A DNA stretch of 64,000 nt from Trichoplax sp. H2 (Eukaryota), in NCBI GenBank assembly GCA_003344405.1, contig NOWV01000104.1, positions 1-64,000 of the forward strand, in the 5' to 3' direction. The translations under genes and the position numbers were made by a program. Below, piece after piece: positions 22,001-47,780 of this stretch (positions within the stretch are counted from its first letter, which is position 1; each line of letters begins with the position of its first letter). The notes under the pieces are model-generated. The model made no database searches. It worked only from the letters and a program-made list of their open reading frames with translations, and had not been told where the DNA came from.

Positions 22001-23756
22001 AAAAATTTATCAGTTCCTATCAAAGCATTGTCTAAACTGATTTATACTTGTTGCTAAAATATCTAACGGCTAACTTATATTACTAATAGTAAATTTGAAT
22101 CAATCTAGTTTGACTTTAGCATACCTGTGATGTTGCAAGAAGGAAGTAAAGCATCAACATTCCTCGATAGAAGACAATTGCCATGCTTAACTTTAGCTAC
22201 AGACTATCATGTATTAACGTAAAAGATCAGCTTGTCAATTCTGCTCTACCAATCCTACTGTCCGAAATTTCTGATAAGTTATAGCTTGTAAAACTTCGGA
22301 ACGGCATTATTATTCGCTACGGAAGCGATGTAACATTCAAGGAAGTTAGCATAAGTAGGCTGCATAGTTTCTATTCCAATGTTTAACTAAGGATGACGTA
22401 ATGAGCCAAAAGCATTTACTTTCGAAAGCGGTAGGACATGAATGGCGATACGTAGTCTCTAGTTATAAAAATAAGTAATTACCTTGACTTATCTTGCTTT
22501 ATTAAATTGTCGCATGCGTATTTCTGTCGTGAGATGGTAGATGGAAGAGCTAACTATAAGATCATAGAATATCTATTTCCAAAATTTGGAGCTGATTTTT
22601 CGTCCTATTTCCGAGAATGAAATCAGCAAGATCCATAAATGATTAATTCTTATATAACATAGGTATGTACAAAGATTACGAACTATAATAGCATAGTTCC
22701 CGTAAATTATTTAAAGCAGTACGGTAGATGATTTCATCGCTCTAAAATATGTAAAATAGCTTTAATAACAACTACTTTCCTGCCTACTTATAATGGAAGA
22801 ACAGACAGTTGAAGCAAGCTGCTTTAATCTAAAGTAATTCATAAGTTCTTATCATCACAATTAATCAGAACTAGGACGATAACTTCTACTATAAAGGTAC
22901 CATCATTGTGTAGCCGTAGTAAGTCCTAATTACGTAATGGTTCCTTTAATTATTCATATTCAGCTACTTTAACAAATCTAATCCTAACATATTCTATGAG
23001 ATATGGCCATATTGTTCGTCTATATTATAAAATTCAATTCATTAACTTCCATGAGCTTATAAAGTAGACTCGACAGAAGAGATAGACAAAATCCTCAATT
23101 ATTCGTTAGCAATGTTTTACTGCAAGACGTAATATTACTTTCTGGCTCATAGTAAATGAATTATAAGTTCTGTTATGAATACAGTACTATTTGCTATAGA
23201 ATAAATTATCTGAATGAGCTCTATTCCCTAAATTAATACATAATTATAGTCTTTAATAAGCAAAAATTAATCAGTTAGGGCCTCTATAGAAAGAAACCTA
23301 CCCCAAAAAACAGTTAATTACTTAAGATATAATTCTCAGGAATTCTTCTACAGTAATTGAGACCTTTCAAACAAACTAAGTAATCTAGTTGAAAGTGCAG
23401 TTGGTAAATTAAGTTTTTAATAAATAGCAGTATAAATACAGAACTGATTAAAGTTGATTTTCGTTAGTTTCTACTTTAATTATTTTAAATAGTACGGTAA
23501 TCAATTACGACACATGAATTTGGGGATGAATTTTCATTTTATCGGTTCCGTCATAGGGGAAAAACAATGCAGTTATGTTTCAATTAGTTACTTCGATAAA
23601 TAAGTGCTTACGCCCAGAATTTTAGCATATGATTTACATAAAAGTCATATTTACACATTACGGCTAGATAAGACAGTAACGTTCATGAAATTGATCACTA
23701 GAAGCGACCAGTGGAATAATCAATTCTTCTAGTAATGGTAAAGCTACAGCGGTTTT

Positions 23757-23794
23757 GTCATTTTGCAAAGTGCCCGGGCAGTTTGCAAAATGAC
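23757..23794. repeat. 38-bp near-perfect palindrome
   Basis: GTCATTTTGCAAA-G-TGCCC|GGGCA-G-TTTGCAAAATGAC: 18 of 19 pairs, no loop. Confidence 0.85.
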
Positions 23795-26472
23795 CGACTT
23801 CGCATACGGTCACGTTCAGATATACATTAAATGAACTGATGTCGTTTTATTTGCGCACAAATTTCCAGTTATTACCGTATTCATATTAACTAGTCCACGA
23901 AGAGCCTACATTAATTTTATGTTTTAGTAAAGTACTGTAAGAGATTTCAAGGTTTGCCACTTATCTATGCGTTCAAAGGCAAATGTTGAAAGTAATTGAT
24001 AGAAATTAATAGAATATAAAGTTTAGAAGAAAGCAGTCTCAATTGGTCTTCTTCATCATTTCGTACTGCTAAATAGAGAACATAATATTGTTAATCATTA
24101 AATTAATATCTCAAGGTATTCATATAATTGTCAATAGAATGCATGTTATTAGTGAAATTATTTTCTGCATTTCCAAAGATAAACTAATTTGTAACCTACA
24201 GAATTTCATATTACCTGGTTAAAATATAAAATTATTGACTCTCATAAAATGAAATAAACAAAATATGCCAATGTATGATTATTGCATGGTCACCAGTTTT
24301 ATTCGTTACTTGTTGACACAGATGTAGCTTCATTTACCACCATACTAAGTGATTCCATTCTTAATCAAGTCAGATATGTTTCTCTGAAAAGAATAACTCT
24401 CTATCTCTCGTGGAAAATCGTACAATTATTGGTGGCTGTTAATAATAGCTATTATTGTTTAATTCTAAGAAAAGTCAGCATTTAAGTAATTACTTTATTC
24501 TTTATGGCGATTGCAACAAGTTTTTCGTTATACACGTAAAGTAAAAGAAATGATCTATGAAATCAAGCGTAAATATCCCTTATTAATTAAAAGTCAAATG
24601 AGTTTACTTCGACAATTCATAGTGATGAAAGTCTGGATTCACTAAAGCATAAACGACTACCATTATGCATGCCCATAAGGATAGAATTAATAAGCTAACG
24701 AACTGTATTAGTACAAGATTTCTTATGAATGTTAGAGACTTTATTATTGACCAGAATTGTTGCAATTTTCAATTTTCTATTACTTACTACTGGATTTATT
24801 ATTTAAAATCTAAAAAATTGCCTTATATGTGATTATTTCAGTCTATGATGAACAAAGTTTGCAGTGATATTAACCTTTTCTGAATGAATACTATTAAAGC
24901 GCTGAAGTACATAGTAACAAATAATATTAAAGGAAAATGACTTTCTGTAAGCGTTAAATGGATTACAGCATAAAGCTGCTTAAAAGTATGATGACATAGA
25001 CACTAATATCATAAACAATACGATCAACATTTATCTGCTTTCAAACCTCGACCAGCTATTTCGTAAAAGCTAGGGCTTACAACCTTAATTTATAAAATTA
25101 GAGCTGTCTGAATACTTTTACATTATATATGGCTACCTGTAACTACAATATGAACAATCAGAATTTATAACTTGCATGAAATATAATTTACATCATGCTG
25201 CAATAATGTTTTATGTTCTTTTAATAAACTGTAATCATGCTCAATTGCGATTGTTAACAATACGGATAAATTACTTAATGTACACAGTTATAATAGACCA
25301 TCACTCCTGTCAATTCAATTTACACCTAACGAATTTCGTCTCTGAGTGCTATACAATTTCCTAAACATTATCAAATCAAATTTTCACCTGGGCTTGGAAG
25401 ATTAAGGCTCCTTCTTTACGACTAATTTCATTGCAGCCTATTGCTTTCTGCTATTTATACATGAGATGTGACTGAAATTGCACGAACATCTTATGGAATA
25501 AAATGAAAACATTTTACTTATAGTATTTAAAAAGGAGATCATGTTTAATATTAATAGCAGAAAATCAGGCCTGTAGCTCTTTTTCACTTTTTCCTATACC
25601 ATACTATAGCTTAGCGAGCACTTTTAGGATATTATAAATTTATCCATGTAATTTAGTTAATTAAAGCTTTGTACGATGCATGACGAGTTAAGCCCAGTAA
25701 AAGGCATATCTTAGGTTTACACTTTACACTAATCTTTTATTCTGCCTGTAATAGTTTGTATTTTTACTACAAAATAAAGGGTTAATAGAAATCGACAAGT
25801 ATCATCCATAGCTGATAATAAGCAAGCCAAGGTAACAATTATAATTTAAGCTTATGTGGAGTTTTGACAACACAAGCGTTCTTAGTTAAAGAAAATAATT
25901 CGATAGATTAGTTTTCATTTAAATAAGATACTGTCTAACTAAGCGCGACATTAGGCTTTCACAACCCTACGTGATTATTCAATGTACTTTTCTAATTAGC
26001 GTTGTCTTCTGTAGAATTTAACGCTATATAATACATAAATTGTTCTTCAATTCTTCAAAAGGCTGTGACACATAATTTTAGTATGAACAAGTTATACTAT
26101 CTGTCGTATACTAGTAACGTCCAGATGTTAATAAAGGTATAAGATTGGAAGGAAATCACATTCTTATTGACATTAGTTATTGTTAAAATTTAAGATTTAA
26201 AAACCTTTAGGGCAGTAGATATAATAATAATGAGCAAATGTAAACGAAAATCTAATGTTAATTAATAACAAAATATCCTTTCATAGAGTCTTATCTTATT
26301 CTAGCAAGAAGCGTAGATGGCACTTTGCTTTCCTCGCTCATAATTTTTTAACGTCGTTACAAATTGGCCCCCATTCGAAGGTTTACTTTGCAAACTATTC
26401 TACTTTAGATTCCAAGCTAGAAATAGTTAAAAGCGAATTAATCCTGTAATTTACACTACGGTGTTAAATATA

Positions 26473-29400
26473 TTATTCGTTGCTGCTAATCATGCGACTA
26501 ATAAGTTCATCGTGATGATCGGAACCGGAGTCAGATTCATCAGAGCTACTGCTATCATCACTATGATCGATTTCAATTCTCTTAGCTGCAGGTAAACGTC
26601 TGGAAATAATCGCATCAATTCGATCTCTTGCATTACTTTTATCTGCTTCAGGTGCATCAGATTCATCTGATGATTTTGATGAATCAGAAGAAGATGCAGA
26701 AGAATTTGAACTATCATGATTTTCTTGATTATTCTCTTGCTCTTCCTTTGATATCGGAACTTCAGCGAGCCCCTCTAAACTACTATCGGTTTGTTTAATA
26801 TCTTGTTCTACATTGGGATGCTGTTTTTGATTTATCTCTGGGACATCCTTAGATTCACCTACAGCAATATTAGAATTCTCACTACTTTTTCCATAACCAT
26901 GCTCCTTTTCATTTATTTTTAGAACTTCTTTAGGTTCATCTACATTATTATTCGCCTGCTCACTACCTCTTCCATTACCTTGCTCATCTGTCGACTGCTC
27001 CATATTCTCAGGGCTTTGAATACTGGCTCCCTTTTTGGACAATTGCTGATAGACATCATCTACAATTTCTGGTTCACTTTTAATTTGTTTCGCAGGTTTT
27101 TCATTTAGCTCTTCCTTCAAAAGTTGTGGCGGAGAGTGACTTATCGAAGATGTAGTTAGCGTAGGTTGTTCTTGAGCCTCTTCTTCGTTGCTGCTGCTAT
27201 TTTGTTCGTCATCGCTATCATCATCGGACGATTTGTCTGAGCTATCGTTATTGTTATCAGGTTTATCCTCACTTGATGATTCATCTGAACTATCACTACT
27301 GTTATCAGGTTTATCCTCACTTGATGATTCATCTGAACTATCACTACTTCTTTCATCTAGTTCCTCTTCCTTTGGTGGTGGTGCTTTAACTACTATATAG
27401 TATCAAAAAATCACAGCACTATCATTAATATCCTATAAATTACCGTTTATACTCTTCTTTTTCCTACTATAACAAACCTTTCGCCTCAAAATCTTTGACA
27501 GAATCCCCGCAATTATCGTCGCTATGCGATTGTTCTGTAGATTTAGATTCATTAGAACTACTATCATTATTCACTTGATCGCTACTGACTTGTTTTGATG
27601 TTGTTCCTACACCAGCTGGATCGATATTAGGATTAGATATAGCACTATTGTTGTCCTGCTGAAATATTGGAATGAATTACAAAGAGTTATAATGAAATTA
27701 ACCCGTACACTCAAATTTCTTCTTAGCAACTAAATTAACGATATCTTCAAATCTTTCTTCAAAATTTTAGCTTCCAGAAAGAGATTTAAGTATTACCATA
27801 GCTGCAAAATTTAATCGCATACGTAATTTTATGATATCCAGGACTGGAAGTATCTCTGTATCAATCTCTGATACAACGAGCACAGTAAAATTTAAAGTAT
27901 GCTGCTCTACTCCTGAATTTTTGATAGTTATACTAATATATAATTTAATGGTAATACCAATGGTAACCCATCCTCTAATTACATTTATGCAATATTTCTA
28001 ACCTCGTCCATATCAACTTCAGTTGTACGAGTTTGGTCAATTTCAACATATTCTTGCTCACTTAGATCATTCAGTGTCGGAGTAGAATAGAGTTCTAGAT
28101 AATTTCCATCAACGGCGTCTTCATCGTCACTACTGGCGTTGTCTTCTATAATAGTGCTCTGTTTCAATGTAAAGATAAACAGTTTTGTAGACATTCTAAA
28201 ATTTGTATGATTTTTTTTGTTACTGAGTAAACGGACATGGTTTTGAGTTAGCTTAATGATTTACTGCGGTATCTAGCTGCTATAACTGCAAAATAGCAAA
28301 GGAAATTAAAAAATATAGATCGCTTAGCGGTGCAGTAGACAAACCGTAATTGAGAATGCTGTAAACGTAAACTGGATATCTACTGGTATAACACAATATA
28401 TTAGTTTACTGTTCTTAGAAATTATAAATGAAAACGCAATTTGAACAGCATATTTAGGCAGTAACGAAACCGAGTATTAAATACATTCTTTCATTGTTAT
28501 TTGCAAAAATAATAGTCGCATCTAGAAGAAAGAAACTCGTTCTACAATAGATATAAATGCGTATTACCAATATATAGCAAAATGAGCAAAAATTTTATTT
28601 TATAACTGCAAATAACGGAATATAAGAAAATTTAAAGAGATAATCAAATTTCGTTTATGTTTAACTCACTATAGACCAAGCTTAAAAATACTGTAGATTT
28701 GGTAGACGGACTTAAATTTATATCACCTTGGATTTTTTTCCAATAAAATATTTACAAATTTAATTAAAAAGTTTAGCATTAAATTTTATTGAGTTAATTT
28801 AGCTATGTTACCTCAATAACTTCCGTGTCTGTCACTGCCGTATCATTATTTGTTGAACTTAGCTGATGATTTCCTCTCTGTAGATGATTTTAATAATATA
28901 TTTAAGCACAGTATAATTTAAATTCTGTCAGTTTTACTACCTCTATATTCTCCTCTAATAACTATCTGATATAGGTATTCATACACGATTTAATATAAAT
29001 TTAATGCAATCAACATTTCTACAAGTTAAATTATGTTATCTCATACGTAGCTTGTTATAGAAGGGCTGTCTAAGCTAATGCATATAAGGTATAAGTTAAC
29101 GTTACATATAATAATTACTATCCCGTATTTTGTGCGCAACGTATGTTACGAGATCAATAACCGATTGCATTACCTCAGCATTTCCTTGTTTTATTGTTAC
29201 TAAACTGTGGCTACTTTCTCGGCCACTATTGACTTGCTGGCTATCCGATGTCGTTGTACCTTCACTAAGACTGTCATCTTGCATAGCTGCTGGATTAAAA
29301 TGAGCCAATGGCGCATCAGCTTCTTCATCCCTGTCAGCTTCATGAAGCATGGTAGTACTCTATATAAAGAAATTGTCTCAGAGAATTGTGAAGAAATTTA

Positions 29401-32400
29401 CACAAGTAATAGAGCAATAAGCAATTTATGCTGCGACTAAAGGTGTAAGTTATTTTATTTACCGTATAATTGAGGTTTTCGATAGCTAATGAATAATGAT
29501 GATTGTCTAAATAAGATTTGATATCAATAAGGTGTTGGTATGTTGAAAAGACAAAGTACATTAAGTAAATCAGGATATTATAGCAATTAATGGATAGGAT
29601 GAAGAAATATTGCATATACTTGTACTTAATGATTTTATACCATACCTTCTGGATCATCTATAGGCTTGGCTTGCTTTAATGTTGGCATCATGTAATCTTG
29701 AGTCTTACTATTATTCATTTGATGTTTCTTGGTACATGGTAAACGAAGACCGCTACCAATGATTAAATTATAGCCAGTTTAATTATTTAGTTAAGTAAAA
29801 TGAGTCCCTTTTCGTAAAATACATTAAGTTCTTTTGTAATAAAAGTAAAATACTTACTTTCGACGACGACGGTAGAGATAAACTGCAAACAATATTACTA
29901 AAAACACAGTAATAGTAGTAAAAACCGAGACAACAGCAGATACAGTAGGAGATGCAGCATTTGCAACTTGTCCTGGACAACTATCTGTTATTTATATTAA
30001 ACAGTATTATTAAAATGCTCGCAATTTGCAAAAAACGTTTAATAGCAGTAGTTAAGTACAAAAATTAAGAAGTCTATATTTGTCTAAGATTACTCCATAT
30101 ACATATTACTATCCACATACTTAATGTGTAATTTTTAGTTACGTCGAACTGATATTCAGCCTTGATAGCATTTGCTGCAATTGCTGTAATACCAAAAGTG
30201 TAACTAAACCCTGCCCTGAGCTGTGGAATTACAGCATTCCTAGCTGTTGACAACAACCTTCTGCTAGACCACACAATGTGTGAAGTGATTTTCCAGCGAA
30301 GAATGATAGCTGTTACAGGGTCGTTATTGATATTAGTTAACTGCCAAACAGCTGTAACTGTCGTGCAGTTGTGAGGCTCGATGGTTATGCTACTGATAAC
30401 CGGAATTTGTTCTATTACATAAGACAGATGGAAGAAAGTTGTGTTATAAAAATTAATGCTACAAATATTTCAAATGTTTACAACTGTAAAGAATACAAGA
30501 ACAGAAGTTATTATATAAAAATAATCTTCCGTTCACAGTTATGTACTACTATACGCACTTGGTTGGCATGTGTATCCATTAACTCCATCAATACAGTTTT
30601 CATTTCGCAAGCAAGGATATGATGCACATTCGTTGATATCCGACTGGCAATATATCCCAGTATAGCCAGAAGAACAACTACAACGATAACTATTGATTAA
30701 ATCCAAGCAAATTCCAAAGCTGCAGGGTGAGCTAGCGCATTCATTAATGTTGATTTGGCAGAAGGTACCGCTGTAACCTGCACTACAACTACAGTTATAC
30801 TTGTTGACTAAATCTATGCAATAAGCATTGTTAAGGCAAGGATTAGATGCGCATTCATTGATATTAATAGTACACTGGGCGCCAGTGTAACCGTTTTTGC
30901 AATTACATGAGTAGCCATTTGCTAAATCGATACACGTTCCACCACTAGCGCAAGGCTGGCTCTGACATTCGTTGATATTGGTTTGGCAACTTGCACCAGT
31001 AAATCCAGTTCTGCATGCACAACTATACGAGTTTATTAAATCACTACATGTACCTAAATTCATACAGGGTTCTGACTGGCATTCATTAATGTTACTTTGG
31101 CAGCGATCACCATCAAAGCCAGGATAGCATGAACAATTATAGCGATTAGGTAGATCAACGCATATAGCAAGGTTCTGACATGGACCACTTGCACATTCGT
31201 TAATGTCAGTTTGACAAATACCTCCTGTATAACCAGATCGACACGAACAGGTATAACCATTAACAATATCGCTACATATTCCAGAATTTTGGCAAGGATT
31301 ACTTTGACACTCGTTAATATCAGTCTGGCATGTAATTCCAGCATAGCCCAATGCACAAGAACAATTGAATCCATTTACAAGATCCATACAGTTTCCAGAA
31401 TTTAGGCAAGGAGAACTTGCACATTCGTTAACATTGGTCTGACAGATTACTCCAGTATATCCTGCTACGCACTTGCATCTGTAACCATTGACAGAATCTG
31501 TGCAGGTTCCCCCATTCATACATGGTAGGCTTACACATTCATCAATATTACTCTGACAATAGATGCCGGTAAAACCGCTACGACAGGTACAACTATAGCC
31601 ATTAACAAGATCATTACAGGAACTACCATTGATACACGGACTAGATCCACATTCATTAACATTGATTTCACAATGTGTGCCAATAAATCCAGCTTCGCAA
31701 GTACAGTTATAACTGTTAATTAAATCTAAGCAAGTACCGCCATTAATACAAGGACTACTACCGCATTCATGAATGTTAGTTTCGCAGTTTTTACCAGTAA
31801 AGCCAAACATGCAGGCACATTTATATTGATTAGGATAATCATAACAAATTCCACTATTAAGACATGGATTGCTATCGCACTCCATTAACTCTGTTTCGCA
31901 GCGATCGCCAGCATAGCCAGGCAAGCATGTGCAATTGTATGCGCTAACCTGATCGACACATGTAGCATTATTGAGGCACGGAGTAATACTGCATTCGTCG
32001 ATGTTGATTTCACAATCATATCCAGTAAAACCTGCAGCACAGCTGCAGTTATAGTTATTGATTAAGTCGAAGCATGTGCCTTCGTTGATGCACGGCATGC
32101 TATCACATTCGTTGATATCAATTTTGCAAAGTGAGCCAGTATATCCAGGCATACATGAGCAATTGTAGCTATTAATGTCATCAATACATATACCTTCATT
32201 CATGCAAGGATTAGACTGGCATTCATCAATATTCGTTTGGCATAAAGTGCCCATATATCCATTTAAGCATGTGCAGTTATATCCAGCCACTAAATCAGTG
32301 CAACTAGCATCATTTTGACAAGGATTACTGAAACACTCATCAATATTGACTTCGCATATGGAACCGGTATAGCCAGAAATACATGTACAATTATATCCGT

Positions 32401-35400
32401 TAACAAAATCATGACATATACCACTGTTAAGACAAGGATTACTGTCGCATTCATTAACATTTAGTTCACAATCAGTCCCCGTATAACCAGCTAAACAAGA
32501 GCAATTATAGCCATCAATACCATCGATACAGGTGCCTGTAATCTCACAAGGATTACTAGCACATTCGTTCATATTCGTTTCACAATGATCTCCAGTAAAG
32601 CCAGGCATACAACTACACTGATATTCATTGATAAGATCCATGCACTGGCCGTTATTAATACAAGGTTGGGAAGCACATTCGTTAATATTTGTTGAGCATA
32701 TATTACCACTGAAACCAGCTTGACAAGTACAGGTATAGTTATTAATCCTATCAGTACAAGTTGCATTATTCAAACATGGACGGGAATTACACTCGTCGAT
32801 ATCTACAAATAAAAACATTCCGGAAAATTCATTAATTTACCCGAACATTAGCTGCCCTAGACTTGCCTTATAAATTACACAATCATTATCTACAAAGCTG
32901 GCTAACTGACTTGTATTAGCTGATGAGACTTATATTAATGTTCGACAATACGATACATGATATAACTGTGAATGTTGCATAGGTGCGCCATAACTCAAAA
33001 GAACTAGCTGGTCAACATCTGCCTTACTACAGTAATTTAATTCGTAACAATAACTGGCACCAAGTTTATCAATCCTGCCATAAATAATGTAAGGTTTTAA
33101 TTGATGAATTAAACTACATCAGCCGATATGCAACTCTTTGCAAAATCAAAAATATCTGAATTTGTAAACAATCATTAGAATTCTATATTCACTAGCGAAT
33201 GTTTAAACCTGTCTTCTTACTTATTTCACATTGATCCCCTCTAAAGCCAGCAGCACAGGAGCAATTATAATGATTTGGTGCTGAATTTATACAGGTGGCT
33301 TCATTTAAGCAGGGGGAAAATCTACAACGATTAATATCTATATCGTATAAAACAGACGAAGTATGCTAGATTTAGTATAATTAAAAATAATAAACAACAC
33401 CATATCTTCAGTTAAGAAAAAATCAAACAAGATTCAAAGTTTTAAATACTCTCTGTTACCGTCTTGACAAGTAAATCCAGACCAATTATCCGTACAATTG
33501 CACTGAAACGCATTCAACAAATTGATGCACTGGCCGCCATTTTGGCAGGGCTGATGGTGGCATTCATTGACGTCTATCCGTAGAATAGCATTAGTTAGTA
33601 AAGATGCTTAAAAAAATCCACTTTTCCACAAAATACTAATAACCGGCACTATAAATAATTTATTTAGCATAATAGCAGACTGACCGTATTCACAATCAGT
33701 CCCGTTATATCCAGGTATGCAATCACATCGATATTGATTGGCTCCGACATTAACACATGTTCCACCATTTTGACATGGGGTGATTCTGCACCTGTTATGA
33801 TCTAATGAAAAAGTGTATGAAATAAATTTATCTTTGATCAGGTCTAAATAAATATTTTTCGGCCTTAGTGTGTTGTAGAAACATCTTAGATTCCTAATTA
33901 AACCATGAATTCATCTTAGAGGGGTACACTAATATAAATTTTAGTCGGTTAGCATAGCTAATGATAGAACTACTGTTAACAGCAATTGTAATATTGTCAT
34001 TGAATTTTATTCTCCATTTTATTGGGACTAGTAAATTATAATTCATTTCGTATTACTGTTATTAAATTATTCAGCTGGATTCTAGGCAGTATTCTAAAGT
34101 TACTGGGCTATTGGATCGTAATGTATAAGTCTGATAAAAAAAAAATAATTGCCCACCAGATCAACATTTAAGTACCAGTGCTGCTTAATTTATTCTGTAT
34201 TTACAAGCTGTAATATTCAACGTGATATAGGGCTTGATTAATCCAGGCAAACGTTGATCTGGTGTTAATATTTTTGCTATGAAAATTATCCGCATTAGTA
34301 GTCAAAGTACTGAACTTGTATAGTTTCCTACTTCAGGCGCTATAAACAATATCCTGTTCGGACCACGAAGTTTATAGAACTACATCATGCAGAAGCTGCC
34401 AATTCTAGAAATACACACTCATACAATATAAATGATGGCCTAACAAAAGCGTAAGCCAGAAAATTTTTCTGGCTAATTCTATAAACTACATATCTTAGCC
34501 TCATTTTTCCATTATCGCAAATAAGTTCAGTTTCTTATCACTTACCGTGTTCGCACTCAGTTCCATTAAAGTTATCAAGGCATACGCAGACATAACCATT
34601 AATACTATCCGAACAAGTTGCATTATTAGAGCATGGATTAGAAATACACTCGTCAATATCTATAAGATGGCAATAGTTATAGATATGTTAGGATATAAAT
34701 AATTGAAGTCATAGGCTTGCATAGTAGCTATCGATAACATAATATTGAATTCAGTCAAATAAGTCTAAAATTACTCGTTTCGCAGAGTGATCCCGTAAAT
34801 CCGGCTTGGCAAGAGCAGTTATAACTGTCTGGGAAAATATTACTACAAACGCCTTGGTTCAAGCATGGCCTTAAACGACATCGGTTATTATCTGCAAAAA
34901 GTGCCGTAATCAGATAAACAGCGTTACTATTGCTTCAGAAATATATAGATGCTGTGCAATCCGTAATTTCCTGACTTAAAATTATACAAATTTAACTGAA
35001 CATGGTCTCATAAAAAATACTGCTTATGAATAAATTATCCAGAAAGTAGGAGTAATACCCTTCTAAGAGTAGATATATAGCACTTATATCGCTATATGCC
35101 TAGAAAATGATCTCATAATTAATCGTTGATTGTTACAAATTAAAGCCTAAAGAAAGTATTTTTGGAGACAATTCTTAAACCTCAATACAGCAGTTGTTAT
35201 AAAATTCTACAAACTCAAAGTCTTTTTGTTTTGATATGGAAATAAACGTTATATAATTAATACCCACTAATTAAAGAAAATCGGTTCAGATTCGAGAAAC
35301 TCGAGCACAAAGGACAAGTGTTTTATGAATAATTGCTTACTACAGCGATAACATCCTTACCATATTGGCAGTTTCCGCCGCTATAATTTGTACGACAAAC

Positions 35401-38400
35401 GCAATCATTGCCATTAGCACAGTAACCATTTCCTAAATAGAAATAATTTGATATTTAATTGAATTTTAAAATACTATACTGTATAGCAGCATAAATTTGT
35501 GTAGAATATTACCAGTACATCCATCTTTTAACACACAGCTGGAGCACGTATTTCCGGACCATCCGCTGTTACAACTGCAATTTAGTTTAAATAAGAAATA
35601 GATACCAGTATAACCATTAGCCAACCAAAAATGTTTTATTCGAAATGTTATTAATGAAATACATCGTTTTTTTTAACGTTTTGAAACATACTAGCATTGG
35701 CCAGGTGAATTTGTGCAGTTAGCATGAGATAAATCACAGCCTGTTCTACAAATTGCTTTAAAAATATCAAAATAGCTCTTATTATACAAGTTATAAATAA
35801 ACATTTTTAGCCAATACACAAGAAGATAAAATTTGATTCATAAATAGCAAATGCTAACATAACGCCTTTATTGCTTATATTCTGTACCTGTTTGACAGCT
35901 TGAACCTGTCCATCCTGGTACACAAGAGCAATTGTAGTAATCAATAAAATTATTACATGTAGCCCCATTAAAGCAAGGCGTCGATGAGCATTCATCAATA
36001 TCTAGAGCAATCAACATTATACAAAGGCTTTAGATAAAATTATACTGTGAATACTTTTTTACTATTTCCTTAGATTTTAATATACCGTGCTATTTCCATT
36101 AATACTACCCTATTTTATACGTGACTTAAACCAAGAGTTTACAGCTTAACAAGATTAAGTTTGCATTCTGTTTGTCATACGCTGGTACAGAAACTTACCT
36201 GTCTCGCAAATTTTTCCAGTATATCCTTCTACACATTTACATTGATATGTATTAATTGCTTCATTTATGCACGCGCCATCATTTTTACAGGGATTACTAC
36301 GGCATGGATTTAAATCTAATGTAGTTGAATTAACATATGCTTAGTTCACATCTATAAATGATAATTCAACTAATCAGTGCATTTTTACAGGCAATACCGA
36401 TTGATCAGCTCTCAAAATTGATCTTAAAATTTAATAGTAAGCGCAAACGAGATGCTGATTCTAAAATAGAAAATCTTAACAAATCATATTTACCATTTTC
36501 GCAATTAGCACTTGTATAATTTGATAGGCAATCACAAGTATAATTAAATGGCCCTTCATAGGAACATATTCCTCCATTAAGACATGGTCGACTTACCCTA
36601 CAGAGATTCATATCTGCAGTAAAACAAGACGAATTATTTATCGCGACTGATGTTTTAGAATTACTGATTATGGTGATCACTGGATAAAAAATAACCTACC
36701 AGTTGCACAATGAATGCCAGTATATTGCGGTAAGCATTGACAAGTGTAGTAATCAATAAGATTATTACATGTTGCGCCGTTTATACAGGGACTTGATGAA
36801 CATTCATTAACGTCTGTAATTTAATTAGAGTAACAGCATGACGTTAAGTTAACTTTTAGCATCTCAGAAATTAATCAATGAACTATTTAACTAAATTTTA
36901 TTTAAATTTCTAAGCTATGACTGGTGGGTAGTTTTCAAATTAGTTACGATAAAGTAGAAGCAATCGAAAGCTAAAAATAGCGATAACGATTATTATCATT
37001 TGTAAATTTATTAGAGTAACGTAGGACATTAGCTTAACTTTGCTCTTGAAGAAATTAATCATTAAACTAATAAACTATATTTTACTTCATTTGCAAATCT
37101 ATGGTGGACAGGTAATTTCAAAGGAGTTACTGTACAGCAGAAAAAATCTAAGCATAAGATAATAATAATATTAACTATTGTCGCCTATCTGATAACATCT
37201 GTACTATAACTAAATTCATGTGGAATGTGTTTTTAATTTAATTCACAATAAAATCGTATAAATTTTACATAGAATATTTAATTTCGATAGAGCTATTCTC
37301 ACCTGTTTCACAGTTAGTGCCCGTATAACCTGGGAGGCATGAGCATCTATAGTGATAATTGCCGAGGTAATTGCAACTGCCTCGATTTTGACAGGGCGAC
37401 ATGGTTCGGCAAAGATTGGAATCTTTAACATCACATATATAGAAAGCAAATAGTTTACATCAATTATATTATAAGCTAAATGAATGGCGAAAATTACATT
37501 TTATTCAAAATATCGACTAAATAATGCTTAGCATTAATTCAATAACTATATACATATATGTTACGGTGTAGGTATGTGGCGATGGCATCGTATACGCTAT
37601 CAACCAGATTAAATTGTTATTATTCCAAAATTACTTCAAGTTAATTACATCAATATCCAAAATGGAAGTATAACATCACACGCATTATTTATATATTTAT
37701 TTTTTCTATCATCCGAATCTAAAAGTTAACTTATAAAGCGCGCATACCATTTTCGCAGTGAGCTCCTGTAAACTGTTCTGGACAAAGGCATGTATAACCG
37801 TTAATATTATCCATACAAGAAGCATTAGTATGTTGACAAGGATTTGAGGAACATTCGTTGATATCTATGAGATTTAAAAATTAAATGAGACTTTTTACTT
37901 TAAGCATACTAATTTCGAAGAGTTAAATTTCATAGTAAATGTAAAACATGTAGTACGTATAATGTGCTCCAATAGCATTAATTATATCTTGATATTATAA
38001 ATTTCTTTGAATTAAACTAATCAAACTCATTATATGAAAGTTATCTCTTCGCTGCATCGTGCCAAAAGCTATATCACACCAGAATTTTAATGCATTAAAA
38101 ACTTCATTGACAAAATATCATCTTTTGAGTATAATTATCAAAATTATGATTTGTGAGAAATTTTATAGATAAATTCTAAAGATGCATATGTCACTAAAAC
38201 AACATTTAGACAAATTAGCAAATTTGTAAATGAGGTCAATAATCATAATGAAAATCGACTAATCTAGATACATAAATTCACAATACTAGTTTAACTCAGT
38301 TTAATTTCGAACTCTATGAGACTGTCTCGTTAAAATAATATTTCAATCAAGAGCTGTCTTCATTTAAACAAATATCCACTAGGAATGGTTATTTTATATA

Positions 38401-41400
38401 TCTATCAATATATCTTCAACAAGTGACTACCTATACCAAACCAGACTTAAATTTTAATGGAAGTTATTCAACGTGAAATCTAATTAGTCAATTGCTATGA
38501 TCACAAGTGAATTTTCTTAATAAATTATCAAATTTTACTGCAGAAATTTAATTAACCTAGCATAAAATACATAAAATATATATTTAAAGGAGCTTCTAAT
38601 CTAAGAAAGAGCATTATATCTAAATTGACGGCGAATAACTCAAATTGAATAATAATACGGTGCAATTCCATGAAATACGCATTTTATTGACATTTAATAA
38701 GTAGATTAATTACCTGTACCGCAATGCAGCCCAATATACCCAGGGACACATGAACAGTTATAACCATTCAATTGATCGTTACAAGTTGCGCCATTTAGAC
38801 AAGGGTTAGAGTCACACTCATCGATATCTGTCCAATTATTACAATAGAAACAATAAAATTAACAAATATACTATAATAAAGCTGAAGACGTGCTTACATA
38901 ATGGCTAACTTAAAGTTTTAATTGTCTATTATTTGGTATAAATCCAATATGCTTTGACTCTATGAATTGAAGATAGCACTTACTTTGTTGGCAGTTCTTG
39001 CCAGTATATCCAGTAATACATGTACATTGATAATTAAAAGGGCCTGTAGAAATACACGTTGAGCCGTTTTGACAAGGATTGGCTTTTCGACATTGATCAG
39101 TATCTGATACGGCGATAATTTAGGGAGATATTAACAAATTTCATTGATGCATTAGGTTAACAGAGCTTTAACAAGAAATTTTAAAAATACAGACAGTCAA
39201 GGAAGTGCAGCATAGTCAAAGATTATCACTAAGGTATCTTGATATTAAGATGAAAAATAATATTTCCACAATAATACCATTATCACAATGGATTCCTGTC
39301 CAGTTTGCGGGACAATTACAGTTATATCCATTTATTTTATCTACACATGTAGCATTCTCATGTCGGCAAGGATTTGAAACACATTCATTAATATCTATAT
39401 CAAATAAGCATGAAAAATGATCACTATTTTAAAGGCACAGTTCTCTAATGTAATTAATTTATAAAATTTTGTGATCAGAAGACCTATCAATTACTATAAA
39501 TAAATGAAACTATCGATTATAAGTAGGCAGAAAACTAACATAGTTTTCAGTATCTTAAGATAATCTAAATGGAGCACATTTATGTCTGGTAATTGATACA
39601 TCTAGTTAGAACTAAAATCGCCAAATAGATCTATGATGACGTTAGAACTTCTGTCTTAATGTGATAGCTACTACATATTAATTATTCTTATTCTACCAAT
39701 TTTTTTAATTTAACCCAACATTATTGATAGTATTATAAAATTATATAAAATACTTAATATAACTATAGTGTAGTTCTTATCTTAAACTCAGACAATTGCA
39801 TAACAACTGGCAGTAATTGGAAAGTCTAGCTGGCAGAAAGGTAAAATCGGCAAATTTTATCAAATATTTTCACTCTTTAACTATTTATTGATAATTACAT
39901 ATTGTAGTGAATAGGCTTTTATAGGTATAGCGGATTGTTCTACTCTCTAATGCTACCATAATTTATGTAACTACTGTAATTAGCTGAAATCACTACTCTT
40001 ACGAGAGGAAAAAGTTAATTTAAATAAAATATGTTCTACATAATCTAACGAAAAGTATTAAATTTGAAATCTTTGGTCCGCATTCATTTATACTATTGCC
40101 ATATCTATCAGACAGACAAATTACACTTACTCGATTCGCAATGAATGCCACTATACCCAGGTTGGCATGAACAGGTATATCGTAAAGGGAAATTATTGCA
40201 TGTTGCATTATTCTGGCAAGGATTGGAGTTGCATTCATTAACATCTGCGTATTAGAGTAGAAATTGTTATGACAATTTCGCAGAAAATCAGAATGAAATG
40301 GTAATATTACTTAAGAGTAAATACGAATAACCTTCTTCTCAAGATATTTTAACAAGTTATAATAGCAAAATTCTGTGTACATTGCATGCTTTACCTTGTT
40401 CACAATTTATTCCTGTGTATTCTACTGGACAATTGCAATAGTAAGTATAGGCTCCAGTTACTGTGCAAACACCACCATTTTTACAAGGTGAAGTAAGTCG
40501 ACATTGATTCGCATCTAAATTTTATTTTGGATTATGATTAGTAATGGATAAACCAAAATTAAATGCCTTCATAATTCTTAGCCATTGCTTGGCTGTTTTC
40601 AAAGCTCAGCCAATTTTTTCATAAGATACCTGTTTCGCAAAGAGTTCCTGTCCAATCGAGAGGGCACTTACATAAATATCCATCAACTTGATCTATGCAA
40701 GTTGCATACGGATGTTGACAAGGATTGGAAGTGCATTCATTAATATCTAATCACAAATAAATTAATTGCATTAGGTTGTAATGTAATTACTATTTTATGA
40801 CTACATTTAATCTGGAGTATTAGAGTTTTTCAGTTTAAAACATAAAAACATGGTGAATTCATATTTCAGCAAAATTGTACTTGTCTGGCAAGCAGAACCC
40901 GTAAAACCATTTTTACAAGAACAAGTATACGAATTAAGTCCGTCTTTACAAGTTCCACCATTGGAACACGGAGTTCCAACGCAGTCATTGATATCTATAA
41001 CAAAAGTAAACATAACCATAAGGTAAGAAGTATATTATTAACGCAAACTTTAAAAGTAGTAGCCAGATTTTATCGTTATCTTATGGTTATGTGAAATGTG
41101 AGCGATGGTTTGTATTCCTTTCATTTATCCAGCACTGCCAGTCAGAAATAAGAAGTTTATATCATAACTCACTTTGACTACAATTTTGACCAGTATATCC
41201 TGTAGCACAAGTACAATTATAGGAAGCGAGGCCAAGATATTTACAGGTAGCGCCATTTTGACATGGCGAATATGCGCGGCAATAATCGCCATCTGTTAAA
41301 ATAAGGAAAATATGTATTCATCTATTTTTTGATGGCAAGATATTGTATCTACTTGCATCAGTTTACAGTAAATTGAATATACCAGATATTTTTTTATATA

Positions 41401-44400
41401 CAGTTACGTTAGCTTTACTAATAAAATCAAATTATGGCACTTAGAGTTTATTGTAGCATGCTGAGTTTTAAAATTTTAAAGTATTTCTAGAATCACAGAT
41501 CTTACCAACTTCACAACGTGCACCAGTCCATTGTGCAGGACAGGCACAAGTGTAGCTATTTACTCCATCATGGCAAGTGGAATAAGGGTGGACACAAGGA
41601 TTCGATGCGCATTCGTTTATATCTGCAACAGAAATATTAAAATGATGATTATGTTCAGTATTATAGGATAACACGATTTCCTGCAATCATGATTCGATAA
41701 TCAAGTCAGCGAGCGAAAGTGACTGGTTAGAAAACAGAAAAACAATCTTACTTGTTTGACATGTACTACCAGTGAAGCCAGTCGATGTACAATTGCACGT
41801 GTAACTGTTAGATCCAAGAATACACTGCCCGCTATTAAGGCATGGAGTTGATGAGCAAACGGTAACCTCTGAGAAATTAATAAAATTTACCTTTAAGAAA
41901 ATCTTTATCTATATTTCATGTTATCTATCAGTTTATCTGTCACCTAATTCAATACAGATCCGCTACATACTTTCTGTAAAGACGATGAACTACATGTTAT
42001 TAATTAACAAAATTTACCATTAAGAAAATCTACCCCTACAGTATATTTTACGTTATGTATATGTTTCATCTGTTATTGAATTGAATACTGATCGACTAAA
42101 TAACTGCCATAAAGAGAACAAACTACAAGTTAGATCTAAAGGTTTAATGAAATACTCGCTACTTACGGTCTTGACAATTTATTCCTGTGAATCCAGCTGG
42201 ACAATTGCAGTTGTATGTTAAATCTCCAGTCGATATACATGTCCCACCATTTACGCATGGCGAATCTTTAACGCAAACATCTTTAACTTTTATAAACCAA
42301 CAGTATATAAAAACTTATTACTTACTAATTCTTTAAAACATAATGGCTTCCTTTGCTCATAAAATAAAATTTATATCAAGGAAATTCTCACGTTTTTCGC
42401 ATCGGGTGCCAGTCCAGTCGCTAGGGCAACTGCATGTGTAGGAATTAACATGATTATGACATGTCGCGTATACATGCTGGCATGGATTAGATGCACATTC
42501 ATCAACATCTGAAATTGCATTCATGAAATTTGTTACAATGATACATCATTACATTCCAGCAATTGTATTTACTTGGATTATAATTTTACTTAATAACGAC
42601 GAATTTTGACCAATGGTTTATGTATCTCCCAATCAAAAACGGTACTAAAATCTCTGCAATGCGTAGTTTTACAACAGCAGACCCTGTAGACTTAGTTGTA
42701 TGATCTATAATATTTGCATCATTTAACTGAGTTATACCATGACTTATCATAGACCAATAAAAGGCTAGATTGCAACTATCGAGGTTCATAGCTATTTGAA
42801 AATCAAATTTTAACCCATAAATTTACAGTATTCGATATTATCAGCTTGTAATTCCACTATGAACTGTAGTAGAACTATACAATTTGTAAAGATGCTATAA
42901 AATACCGGGTGTGATCTAAAAATTTAACAATTTTTTTAGAAAATGCCTAAAGCAAACTAAAAATTGCAAATGATTTAATTTACTACCCTATCACTTACTC
43001 TGTTGCGTGCTTACACAATAGCAATCTCAATCAATTTAGTTCGGTATCATATTTATCTATAGCCTAATTATTATGAATCACGTTATGTATTTTTAACTAA
43101 CGTAGTTGTTATTTAAGAAAACATTGAATGTAGCTCTTGATTAGAACGTGCATCGTATTGTAAGAGGGTATAATTATCGCAATTTACCATCTTGGCAATT
43201 TCTGCCACTGTACCCAGAAGGGCAAACGCAAGTATAATTGAGAGGAGATGGCACGCATGTACCTCCATTGGTGCACAAAGTAAATACACGACAAGCATTG
43301 ATATCTAGAAAATAATAAATGTTTATAAATATAACTTAAGTGCTTTATCAGTACCTTAGTATTTCAATATAGACTTCTTGATTTGTAAATTAGATCAAGC
43401 AATTTATATAGCATTAGCTATTTATTTTCTATTAAGTGATTAATGTTACTTCCTAGTTGTTACTGTAGGATACTGTATACTTTAGGATAATAAGGCTCGG
43501 AGAATATTAATCTCATAGTAACTTACCAACTTGACACTGGGCTCCTGAATAGTATGTTGTACAAGAGCAAGTATAACTATTAATTCCATCGGTACAGTTA
43601 CCGTTGTTTTGGCAAGGATTAGATGCACATTCATCAATATCTAATAAATTCCATTAAGTAACGTAAATTACATAAAATTTGAGAAATTAGAACTAAAGTG
43701 AAATACTCGTGTAAATAAGATAGATAATAACATTACTGACAGACTTTAATCATTAAATTATTTTTATTACTTGTCTCGCAGTGTAAACCAGTAAAACCAC
43801 CAACACAAGAACAATTATAGCGAAATGGCATATTAACGCATGTTGCACCGTTCACGCAAGGGTTAGAATTACACTCATCAAAATCTGCAAAATATGCGTT
43901 CGATAACTGAATCATGAGTCTAAACAAGCCAAGTTGATAACAACTGACTATGTGCTTCTTACCTTGTGAACAATTTTGGCCTGTGTAGCCTGTAGGACAC
44001 AAGCAACTATACGTATAGATGCCAGTGTAAGTGCAGACGCCGCCATTAACACATGGAGAGCTAACTCGACATAGATTACCATCTAAGTGAAATTATAGAA
44101 TATTACGAATAAAGCTCTTTAGAAATCAATTATATTAGTTAAAGATATCAGAGTAACAGAATAATCGGACATTAATACTTTTCGTACCATTTTCACAGCT
44201 GGTTCCAGTCCATTCTGCGGGACAATTGCAAGTATATGAATTTATTCCATCAACGCACGTAGAAGATTGCTGACATGGATTAGATGCGCACTCGTCGATA
44301 TCTATTCGTATATCAATTTAATGCCATTTTAGCAAAATCAAACTCAATGCATGCCGAATAAGTAAGGCAATAATCGTAACAGCTGAAATATCCCACGCGT

Positions 44401-47400
44401 GTAGATTACTTAAGGATAAATATTATAAGTATCTTTGCTTTGTTAACGAAGAATATTCAATTTCAGATAATCGGATTTTGCTTACTTATTTCACAATTTG
44501 TACCATTAAATCCAGTAGCACATACACATGAATATGCATTAGGGCCGGTGTTATTACACGTGGCACCATTCAAACAGGGCGAACTCCGGCACGTATTTAA
44601 ATCTATAAAAATGGCATTACTTTTAGAATGTAGCTGATATTAATTGTCTTTGTGCAGCAACTTTTGTCGATAATAAGAAAAAGTATCATTCCTAAAATCT
44701 AAAAATAAACTTTATATATGATCTTAAGGAAAGCAGTAATCTTAAAATTACACTGTAGTATTGTAGTTATATAAAATTATTAATAGATGAAGAACTCCAT
44801 GTAAGAAGGCACTTTCAAGTCCCGGATGTAGATAGCTTGTTCTTATCGTACCTGTATTACAGTCTATCCCAGTCCAAGTACTTTCACAATCTACACTAAC
44901 TTTTATTCTAAATTGCGATTTATCGGAAATTGGCCTTGTCCCTATCATAGTAGCTGTTTCAGAAGCTCCTGGTACAGTATTAAAGCGTTGGGTAAATCGA
45001 TCAATAAGACTGTCTGTACTACCTACGTAGTTTTTGTCCATTGCAGTCAAATGAACATTGACAAAACCCTGACATTCAAGAACAAGAAACAGATATCAGA
45101 TAAATACTACTATATTAATTCAAAGATCATATTTCAACTTTAGAATGTAATTTCTTTATATTTACTCTATATTTTTCATTGATGGATCCACGGTACGGAT
45201 TGGTAATATTGTCAGCAGTTAGAGCTTGACCAACTGTAAATTGTATCGAAGATGATGCATTCCAAACATTCGTAGTTAGTGAACCGTAGGTGCAAGGGCT
45301 GCTTACAGTTAAATTATTGCCACATAAAGTGAAATAATATCCACAAGAACCACCATTGCAGAGTGTAGTATTCCAGTGACTTTGATTATTATTTATATAG
45401 CTTTGAAATTCGTAACTGATGTAGGCATGCACATCAGCTTCTACATAACACTATAAAGTGAAGATGTAAAGTTACATATTTCAAAAGGCATGCATTTCCT
45501 CATAAATATAAATATTAAAAACAAAAGGCCTACGGATAAAATTAGAATTACGAACAATTTCCACTATGTCAATTAGACTTAAAAGTATACATTTGATATG
45601 ATAAATATTAATCATTGCACTACTTTAGTTATCATAAACTGATCAAGGTAAATTAAAGAGGCTAATTGAAAAAATGATATTGACCATGATCCTTCAAACA
45701 TCGATCTAAGCCTAAAAACACCTTTTTATCCTTAGCTGAATATTATTTCAAATACAAAGGTAAAATGATTTGTATCTTAGACGGAATCATGAAACGTAAC
45801 CTAAATCTAAAAATCGAATTTACTATCTAATTGCAATAAAATTTAAATCGAAAGAAAACGTTAGTGGATAGTAATTGCTTTTATTACAATTCATTTTGAT
45901 TCTAATGTTAACGAAAGATAAGAACTACCTATTAACAGGAAGACTTCACTTCATATACAACTGGCAAATATCATCAGCCATCTTACAAGTTACTATAACT
46001 TCCTAAGCAATACAGTAGGAGCTTCTGCTAACACCGTAGTGATTTATATTATCGTCTATTTCCAAATGCAGCATAGATAACAACTGACTACATTATTCAG
46101 ATACTTTCAGTCTACATAACTATTAAAATCATCATGAAAGCTAAGATATCTCTACTAATATAGGATCTCTTATATTAACGTCAACAGCTGTTAAAGCTAG
46201 TTAATCTCACTAACGTTATGCTAATTGTTATCGAAAAAATTATTCGGCCAGCACGAAAACTCTGATTAATTAAATTGGAATATCGCATTTGTCTATGATG
46301 ATAAATTAATATCACTAGCATCGCTAATAACTAACGTAACATTTAATCTTGTCGTCTAAAAAAGTGTACTTAGAAACGTAATAGCTTCAAATTATCGACT
46401 GCAAAGCATTAATGACCAACATTTTAGACTAGAGGATTCACAAAATGCAAGTAATAACATCAAAGATTGGCTTATTGCATTTAAAAAGACTTTTGCTTAT
46501 TAGAAATTTAGCATTCTGTTACAATCACAAGAGCACAAAATTGATGGATTCATTTTCTGAAGCACTTATTAATTTAAGCCTTACTGTTTTAGCTATTATT
46601 TCTAGGCAATTCTAATAATTAATTATAAGCACCTAATACTAAATCTATAACTTTATAATCATTTTTAGGTCATCTCCTGACTGGAATGCTGATGGAGAAA
46701 TTAGTATTCGGCAATCCAATGTTTAGAATCCTTACAATCATCTACTAAATTGTAAAAATCAAAACATCTGTTCACTGCTGAACTGCACAGCCGATAATTA
46801 TAATTAAAGATTAACTTCCAGGACTCTTTCTAGCTACGTCTATAGTACATAATTTAAGAATTAACTTGATAAATAGTTAGGATATATCAGTGAGATTAAA
46901 GCATTTGTATTAAACTAAAGTTAAATTGCTTAAAGCAATTATCTTACTTATCTTAAAATTACATATCAATAGAAAAATTAACTTTTATAGATAATTCGGG
47001 GTTAAATTAAAATGCTCAGAAAGGGTAAGTTATCAGCTCGGGACTTATATCTAACTGTAGTTGTTATTCAGAGACATTATAGCTGTCGGAATATAATTTA
47101 TTATTCATAGACCCTCGGATCTTGCCCAATCATAGTCAATTATAACATAATTAATAGTCAAGCAATGCATGAACTGTTATTTTTCTAGCTAATAAATTAA
47201 TCGATGGCGTTTTTATCAGTTTCTTTCTTCATATTCATCAACAATTGAGAACCGACCCGTGCATCTATCAAATATTAAATACTCAATGACATAACTGATT
47301 TTAAGAACTACATTAAAATTTACAGTAATATCCAGGTGGTCAATAAGTTTATAGCCACGATAATACTAGCTTACAAATTCATTTTATCTTAGATTAAGGT

Positions 47401-47780
47401 AATCTGTATTACTAATTTCCTGTAATGGGCTATATTTAAGCTTGCTTGAGAAAAACATGTAGAAATTACTACATGTAAAAAGTATACGATAATGAAGAGA
47501 AATTCTTATCACTTTGTTGGTAATCTATGTAGTAGCTACAATCATGAACAGTTTCTAGTAGAATTATACGTAAATTTTCAGGAAAGCTTTTGGAGATCGA
47601 ATGTGTGATTCATGATTTTAATAGATTATTAAGGATTAGAAGATGCGATTTAAACGAAGAAAAGAAGATAGTAGGAACCTAACTGTAATAGTTTAAATTG
47701 AAACTGAACTTTATTCTATGACTTACCAAAGTTGCGATAGTTAAGAATAAGTAAAGGGCGACAAACAAAATTTTCCTCAT
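26473..47780 (-). CDS. Gene C: giant Notch-ligand-like type I membrane protein (SP-MNNL-DSL stub-24 EGF-DOS-5 EGF-~20 cbEGF-FN3-TM-long acidic tail)
   Basis: Signal exon 47780-47727 ([18 protein letters not shown]). MNNL exons 45450-45166 (CGYYFTLC...[12 protein letters not shown]...ITNPY, cf. Delta PCTYGSAVTPVL) and 45068-~44852. 24 single-EGF exons ~44582-35888; DOS exons 35755-35361; 5 EGF exons ~34891-33221; ~2.2-kb EGF exon ~32802-30560; FN3-like exon ~30411-30121; TM exon ~29984-29858 ([26 protein letters not shown]). Tail exons run to the S/D/E-rich exon ~27394-26473; linkage of the last tail exons is less certain. Confidence 0.85.
27253..27348 (-). repeat. Perfect 48-nt tandem duplication encoding ([16 protein letters not shown])x2
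   Basis: 27253-27300 is identical to 27301-27348, inside the acidic low-complexity exon. Confidence 0.9.
35361..35755 (-). other. DOS (Delta and OSM-11) motif, i.e. ligand-type EGF1-2 pair, encoded by three small exons
   Basis: Exons 35755-35692, 35574-35513 and 35432-35361 splice in frame to [66 protein letters not shown], matching the Delta pattern ICLPGC...HGFCDKPGECKCRVGWQG..C..C....GC. Confidence 0.8.

Follow-up and report, generated by a model that had tools for sequence, protein, structure and literature searches.

How does the EGF1-2 pair of a Notch ligand come to lie in the middle of a protein that has no DSL domain? The question is raised by gene C of the placozoan Trichoplax sp. 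H2, found in a 64-kilobase stretch of 64,000 nucleotides (the window) at the start of contig NOWV01000104.1 (contig C47 in genome set G000). The ligands and DOS proteins that PMC2504490 describes carry this pair adjacent to the DSL domain or at the N-terminus. In gene C, the pair is located mid-protein, and it is expressed and conserved. The layout of gene C is real and represents a new variant of the Notch-ligand architecture, common to five paralogous genes. The window has a guanine and cytosine content of 29-38%, and EGF exons are numerous on its minus strand.

The model of gene C comprises 45 exons and 2,818 residues, and the terminal stop is the only stop in the spliced frame. The encoded protein is organised as signal peptide, C2 domain, a single C-x8-C loop (the stub), 24 EGF repeats (the spacer), the pair, five EGFs, an exon with 19 EGFs, an FN3 domain, a transmembrane segment and a tail. 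It contains about 50 EGF repeats, of which the pair are repeats 25 and 26, and the distance from C2 to EGF1-3 is 935 residues, or 24 EGFs. An earlier note on this DNA had described three small exons of 64, 62 and 72 nucleotides (nt) as a ligand-type EGF1-2 pair, followed by an EGF3-like exon and preceded by 24 EGF repeats. Sizes and coordinates are correct, the splice sites of all three exons are AG/GT, and exactly 24 single-EGF phase 1-1 exons are present between the stub exon (45068-44852) and the first small exon. Thirteen of these 24 EGFs carry the O-fucose consensus. No full-length record of gene C was detected among the 41 candidates of a homolog search with the C2 exon, a search whose reach ended at proteins of 2,000 residues. 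The features of the model are as follows.

47727..47780, minus strand: exon 1, signal peptide (residues 1-18); ATG and hydrophobic stretch, GT donor, RNA cover in bin 47489-48100.
45166..45450, minus strand: exon 2, first part of the Notch-ligand C2 domain (MNNL); Pfam MNNL E value 0.0019 (under cut-off), family profile finds Delta C2 structures first (E value 6.9e-7).
44852..45068, minus strand: exon 3, remaining C2 and the single C-x8-C loop (DSL stub), followed by a phase-1 intron; joint 44602/44852 in three of four RNA runs.
35888..44602, minus strand: spacer of 24 single-EGF phase 1-1 exons (residues 186-1120), mostly a repeated three-exon unit; exon model and repeat periodicity.
35692..35755, minus strand: exon 28, first four cysteines of a ligand-type EGF1, 64 nt, phase 1 to 2; AG/GT sites.
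35513..35574, minus strand: exon 29, end of EGF1, two-residue linker and start of EGF2, 62 nt, phase 2 to 1; AG/GT sites.
35361..35432, minus strand: exon 30, remainder of EGF2, 72 nt, phase 1 to 1; AG/GT sites, with the intron before it not in canonical Delta.
33221..34891, minus strand: the next five EGF exons, of which the first (34891-34775) is EGF3-like; RNA joints, block conserved in paralogs.
30559..32802, minus strand: single exon of 2,244 nt with 19 complete EGF C-terminal loops; sequence and RNA.
30121..30411, minus strand: FN3 domain exon; Pfam fn3 E value 0.00059 (under cut-off), RNA joints.
29858..29984, minus strand: transmembrane exon with basic stop-transfer; sequence and RNA joints.
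26473..29752, minus strand: predicted cytoplasmic tail, seven exons, 556 residues, rich in Ser/Asp/Glu, eight tyrosines; exons 1-3 from RNA joints or contig pieces, the fourth from a loose end, the last three from splice sites only.

Expression was analysed over 28900-48100 with assembled RNA contigs from four runs of four studies (X4, X8, X10 and X13), of which X13 is RNA by its record and X4 and X8 are RNA by guess. All listed RNA joints, 15 of 56, agree with the gene C model, including the joint of C2 to the first EGF. In the 641-base bin at the pair (35310-35950), the model predicts 261 exonic bases, and bin depth relative to contig depth implies 261 (X4), 261 (X8) and 262 (X13). Run X10 gave no cover at the pair. 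Run X8 has a single contig depth (71.4) at the C2 joint, across the spacer sites and in the bin of the pair, and contig depth in X4 and X13 is the same on either side of the pair. Therefore, the main gene C transcript carries both the spacer and the pair. Transcription of the three small exons, for which the earlier note had pointed to RNA, is in this way indicated by depth in three runs and not by listed junctions; the joints of exons 28-30 are absent among the 15 listed of 56, their splicing comes from the depth arithmetic, and RNA contigs drop rare isoforms.

The pair was identified with a hidden Markov model (HMM) of EGF1-2 from four canonical ligands, which scored residues 1122-1184 of gene C at 38.2 bits, while the next best of 37 domain hits reached 14.4. 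The canonical placozoan Delta gene, on contig C352, has exons of 64 nt (phase 1-2) and 131 nt as well as an exon for EGF3. The flanking and phase-2 introns of the gene C pair are those of this Delta, plus one extra intron inside EGF2, which is present in all 10 DSL-less modules. Similarly, JAG1 exon 6 is bounded by phase 2 and phase 1 introns (PMC2725086), and the ligand-type junction given in the earlier note for the first exon agrees with both genes. The stretch linking EGF1 to EGF2 consists of two residues in all 14 modules compared, a length called unusual in PMC2725086. The HMM and the introns shared with the Delta of the same genome bear out the homology of the pair and the next exon to ligand EGF1-2 and EGF3. 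Four other genes of the genome repeat these three exon sizes. As noticed before, no pair was seen in gene B, nor in that portion of gene A which the window covers; the first-exon pattern matches the contig only at 35715-35750, and this pattern misses some true copies.

The three small exons of gene C had been read as a DOS motif, which does not hold against the consensus. Seven elements of the Komatsu consensus were taken from PMC2504490, and gene C possesses three of them, the cysteine spacings x3, x3-8 and x10-12. Between its fourth and fifth cysteine there are six residues and a tyrosine, where the consensus has x2-5 and [KVER]; the proline after the first EGF2 cysteine and the EGF2 tryptophan are also missing. 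Among the 10 DSL-less modules, the DOS proline was found in one, the tryptophan in none and the full pattern in none. The controls gave 7/7 for two ligands, 6/7 for moth Serrate and 5/7 for the canonical placozoan Delta (proline kept, tryptophan absent). Judged from its sequence, the gene C pair is a DOS region by descent and not by consensus.

Gene C belongs to a family of genes with a Notch-ligand C2 domain and no DSL domain. The search of the genome with two C2 exons (10 places each), together with the fetched regions, yielded at least 15 such genes. Five of them carry the pair behind a spacer, namely gene C (24 EGFs), C353_550k (25), C353_586k (about 21), C313_32k (12) and C313_65k (7). 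In three C386 genes the pair directly follows the stub, two of them with a tandem double pair, and in the C102 gene four EGF1-only repeats, matching its first half, take that place. No pair was seen in the other six. Two of these, A and C313_8k, are truncated at contig ends; the rest are B, C305, C313_18k and C353_565k, the last of them decayed. Pfam MNNL is matched by five of 10 family members, and the top three PDB matches of the family profile are Delta or Delta-like chains.

In the whole genome, DSL (PF01414) has one clear match, on C352 (E value 1e-17), and four others under cut-off. On contig C47 no DSL domain was detected at E≤1, and none was detected in the stub exon. Unlike canonical ligands, gene C has only one C-x8-C loop in place of a complete six-cysteine DSL domain, and EGF1-2 does not directly follow a DSL. 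A hidden DSL exon in gene C was also considered and rejected, as the contig has no DSL match and the RNA bins agree with the model. In 12 of 14 genes, the stub scores better as the last DSL loop than as the first (controls 15/15 and 15/15, from 15 clean DSL rows), and its intron position is that of the DSL/EGF1 intron of the canonical Delta gene. Together, these two observations suggest that the DSL core was lost by an internal deletion that left one loop. The loss of DSL would be older than the spacer.

The two C386 genes with tandem pairs, at 5138-8980 and 22462-25538 (protein P0151), share a layout of C2, stub, EGF1-2 twice in tandem, EGF3 and FN3. Aligned with DLL1, P0151 has its first pair at the DSL region, as expected of a DSL precursor, and its second pair at EGF1-2. 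The name of P0151, Teneurin-a, looks like a misannotation. The gene at C102:200319-203802 encodes C2, stub and four EGF1-only repeats, each split between exons of 61 nt and 38 nt. Exons for EGF2 or a transmembrane segment were not seen in this gene, so its product may be secreted. Counts of placozoan Notch ligands based on DSL thus miss at least 15 ligand-related genes, one of them filed as teneurin. The relatives with zero spacer, with tandem pairs and without a pair form, in one genome, a natural series for the roles of C2, the pair and EGF3 without DSL, and for the origin of DSL.

The displaced block has been conserved. Between the gene C pair and its four paralogs, the uncorrected proportions of nonsynonymous (pN) and synonymous (pS) differences are 0.17-0.34 and 0.82-0.89, the latter being saturated above 0.75. 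Compared with the closest paralog, identity outside cysteines is 0.70 in the pair and 0.52-0.78 in the next five EGFs, versus 0.54 in C2 and 0.56 in the best matches of the spacer. By these values, the pair is under purifying selection and the displaced block is maintained.

Regarding the origin of the spacer, its 24 repeats show a lag-3 similarity of 119.4, versus 95.9 ± 5.0 after shuffling (reached in 0 of 5000 shuffles; for lag 6, in 37 of 5000). An HMM of ligand EGF3 gives one repeat class 42.6 ± 6.8 bits (80 repeats family-wide), versus 25.8 and 22.1 for the two other main classes, and among 29 single-exon repeats the first EGF after the stub of gene C has the top score (53.8 bits). In a tree of 14 modules, the DSL-less ones are split from the canonical ones with 95/94 support, and the five spacer genes are on one branch (85/88). 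One tryptophan of EGF2 is missing in all five spacer genes and kept in the five adjacent modules and four canonical ligands.

A history in three steps is proposed. First, the DSL core would have been deleted in a Delta-type ligand, fusing C2 to one disulfide loop and the old phase-1 intron. Second, the extra intron split EGF2, as seen in all 10 DSL-less modules. Third, EGF exons of phase 1-1, many of which are copied from EGF3, would have multiplied on one branch as three-exon units between the stub and the pair; their periodicity is observed, and their direction is presumed. Two results speak against a history this simple. The 85/88 branch is under the strong-support mark of the tool, and in the C2 tree, where the family forms one group (93/88), spacer genes are intermingled with pair-less ones, with three changes and no single spacer clade, which points to loss or shuffling among paralogs as well. 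The C2 tree has many long branches, with 14 of 30 inner forks under 80, and DSL loss is undatable from it because its outside rows were picked by similarity to the family. It also includes four false-positive 'DSL' rows of the pattern, one of which, the family member P0151, falls inside the family.

The earlier idea that exon duplication inserted the spacer is accordingly kept in part: growth by duplication stands, given the period of 3 and the spacer-less paralogs, and insertion as the only route does not, as duplication of a cassette with loss, or shuffling, could also give the layout. We consider it possible, at less than even chance, that a block of pair plus EGF was duplicated and its N-terminal pair then lost, or that a phase 1-1 three-exon cassette was shuffled into a pair-less array. 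The tandem pairs in two C386 genes, the four EGF1-only repeats in the C102 gene and the mixing in the C2 tree point in this direction, as does the EGF3-HMM score of the first EGF after the stub, which is highest as if a pair had been excised before it. Nevertheless, a single event of this kind would suffice at most, since the five displaced modules have one branch and one derived residue in common, and most of the spacer length would still come from period-3 duplication.

The gene C protein would be a rod of about 50 EGF repeats with a type I membrane topology. In ligands, Notch is bound at two sites, C2 and DSL, C2 also binding lipid (PMC5538765), and deletion of DSL abolishes Notch binding (PMC2725086). 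Since gene C has no DSL and its C2 lies 935 residues from EGF1-3, its product probably does not activate Notch. Instead, the C2 tip may touch the apposed membrane, with the EGF1-2 pair and the next repeats retained either for a rigid kink or for binding another partner than the canonical Notch site. It is somewhat more probable than otherwise that gene C, as a member of a Delta-derived placozoan family, encodes such a long tether or recognition protein. Two points weigh on the other side. The canonical placozoan Delta and moth Serrate also fail the strict DOS consensus, which makes it an imperfect guide to function, and the purifying selection seen on the pair would be explained just as well by a role in Notch binding.

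Such a role, in which the pair and EGF3 still bind Notch, the protein serving without DSL as a co-ligand or competitive inhibitor like DLK1 or OSM-11, tuning the single canonical Delta, is rather unlikely in our view. Conservation relative to the closest paralog is highest in the block formed by the pair and the next five EGFs, LNR-domain loci are present in the genome, and Notch-Delta signalling has been reported in placozoans (PMC10580291). DLK1 EGF1-2 and OSM-11 bind Notch EGFs in two-hybrid tests (PMC2504490). However, gene C lacks four of the seven DOS elements, proline and tryptophan among them; DOS is in the first two EGFs of DLK1, EGFL9 and C901 (PMC2504490), while it is mid-rod in gene C; and four uncut family genes, one of them decayed, show no pair. 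The DOS proline is needed for Dll1 activity and absent from Dll4, and DSL is essential (PMC6986876). The analogy to DLK1 and OSM-11 drawn in the earlier note stands for a ligand-type EGF1-2 without DSL, and is weaker than was implied because the pair fails the consensus. We therefore favour a tether or recognition protein over a modulator of this type.

Gene C resembles known proteins in some features and differs from them in others. Gene C shares with canonical Delta, Serrate and Jagged (DLL1, JAG1 and the C352 Delta) the signal peptide, C2, EGF1-2 with two-residue linker and phase-2 intron, an EGF3-type repeat and a single transmembrane segment. In contrast to them, it lacks the DSL core and has 24 EGFs separating C2 from the pair, about 50 EGFs altogether, FN3 before the membrane, a 556-residue acidic tail and an extra intron in EGF2. 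DLL4 and DLL3 are compact, their EGF1-2 adjoining the N-terminal module, and unlike gene C they have no spacer. Similar to gene C, DLL4 has EGF1-2 without the DOS motif (PMC6986876), and DLL3 keeps MNNL, is scored DSL-less (PMC12166595) and showed no Notch binding in a plate assay (PMC5538765). DLK1, DLK2/EGFL9 and Caenorhabditis elegans OSM-11 also combine a ligand-type EGF1-2 region with the absence of DSL; DLK1 and EGFL9 carry the motif in their first two EGFs and agree with the consensus, whereas gene C keeps C2 and has the pair mid-protein with 3/7 elements (PMC2504490). In the predicted tail of gene C (26473-28158, minus strand), outside the RNA-tested stretch, tyrosines in acidic surroundings are possible phosphorylation or docking sites.

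A further possibility, which we regard as improbable, is that the DSL-less placozoan family survives from a stage before DSL existed, the precursor predicted in PMC2725086, where DSL arises from a duplicated EGF1b-EGF2 unit. The C386 tandem-pair genes would then be the intermediate, and the gene C pair a Notch-binding module that can be moved, within a large group of modulators lacking DSL that accompany a single true Delta.

It is very improbable that the pair is a generic short EGF doublet of the tenascin, teneurin, WIF1 or laminin type that resembles ligands by convergence. Pfam gave no hits for exons 28 and 29 taken singly and weak tenascin (E value 0.02) and teneurin (0.043) EGF hits for exon 30; P0151, with its teneurin name, matches EGF_TEN at 3.9e-24, a label also found on canonical ligands. 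Non-ligand short EGF repeats, bacterial ones included, reach 33-43 bits with the family HMM, near the 43-50 of true ligands, so the assignment is borne by the intron positions and the context of C2 and EGF3. Nonetheless, introns shared with canonical Delta, the two-residue linker, the EGF3-type exon next to the pair and the ligand C2 in gene C all argue for descent from a ligand. The 32 hits of the EGF1 stretch of a paralog include Jagged-1 (1.4e-8) and WIF1 (0.014) and no chain of a tenascin, teneurin or laminin. In the paralog module search, WIF1 is outranked by Jagged-1, Serrate and Delta-like chains, and with the whole paralog seven ligand chains rank above WIF1 and teneurins in the PDB. 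The laminin EGF pattern has eight cysteines, and a laminin-type identity was rejected, as the gene C pair has twelve cysteines in two six-cysteine units. Tenascins, teneurins and laminins have long tandem arrays of short or eight-cysteine EGFs, whereas gene C has one such pair among ordinary EGFs, with the domains C2, EGF, FN3 and transmembrane segment. Finally, that two genes were fused in the model or that the three small exons are unused is hardly credible: the unlisted joints of exons 28-30 and the rare isoforms dropped by contigs leave it some room, and it was rejected on the continuous RNA depth described above, the intron of 132 nt before exon 28, with no room for a new 5' end, and the recurrence of the layout in four paralogs.

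Outside placozoans, the nearest C2 matches to the family profile come from the 'Delta-like/DSL-like' C2 proteins of invertebrates (PMC5356439) and from proteins with C2 and a stub, among them planarian EGF-8 (P0137). Unlike gene C, most of these C2 proteins retain DSL and are without the EGF1-2 pair. The longer profile hits (at least 185 residues) include many invertebrate C2-DSL proteins and a few C2-stub proteins; apart from the placozoan ones, a complete pair without DSL was not found among these longer members of the 150 hits, which is weak evidence of absence because most hits are short fragments. Surveys of Notch ligands (PMC12166595, PMC2770060, PMC5356439, PMC3482393, PMC6321704, PMC4914847) define them by DSL, and the literature searched, chiefly open main texts and including these papers, gives no account of the DSL-less family or of a displaced pair. 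Neither EGF nor Delta is mentioned in the main text of PMC6321704.

In planarian EGF-8, which PMC4914847 classes among EGFR ligands, the N-terminus agrees with the C2 profile of Notch-ligand type (E value 4.8e-4) and precedes a one-loop stub. Proteins P0152 and P0153, one named from a planctomycete metagenome bin, contain about a dozen short EGF repeats resembling ligand EGF1.

Other genes of the window and of the family were also observed. Genes A and B (4266-5001 and 20010-21192, minus strand) possess divergent C2 and stub exons at their start; gene A runs off the contig start, and gene B has a large EGF exon and FN3-like exons. The family member at C353:558182-565185 has EGF exons without some cysteines and is probably a decaying copy. 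A single open frame of 1,742 residues at C353:568807-574032 has a domain other than EGF at its N-terminus, contains many EGFs and probably ends at the membrane; it is located just downstream of the C353_586k exons and may be the 3' part of that gene. Upstream of the EGF array at the right end of the window, C47:64001-79000 contains exons that by eye are C-type-lectin-like and CUB-like; no C2 exon was seen there, so gene D is perhaps not a member of the C2 family. The interval from gene C to gene D contains an open frame of 468 residues at 53997-55400 on the plus strand.

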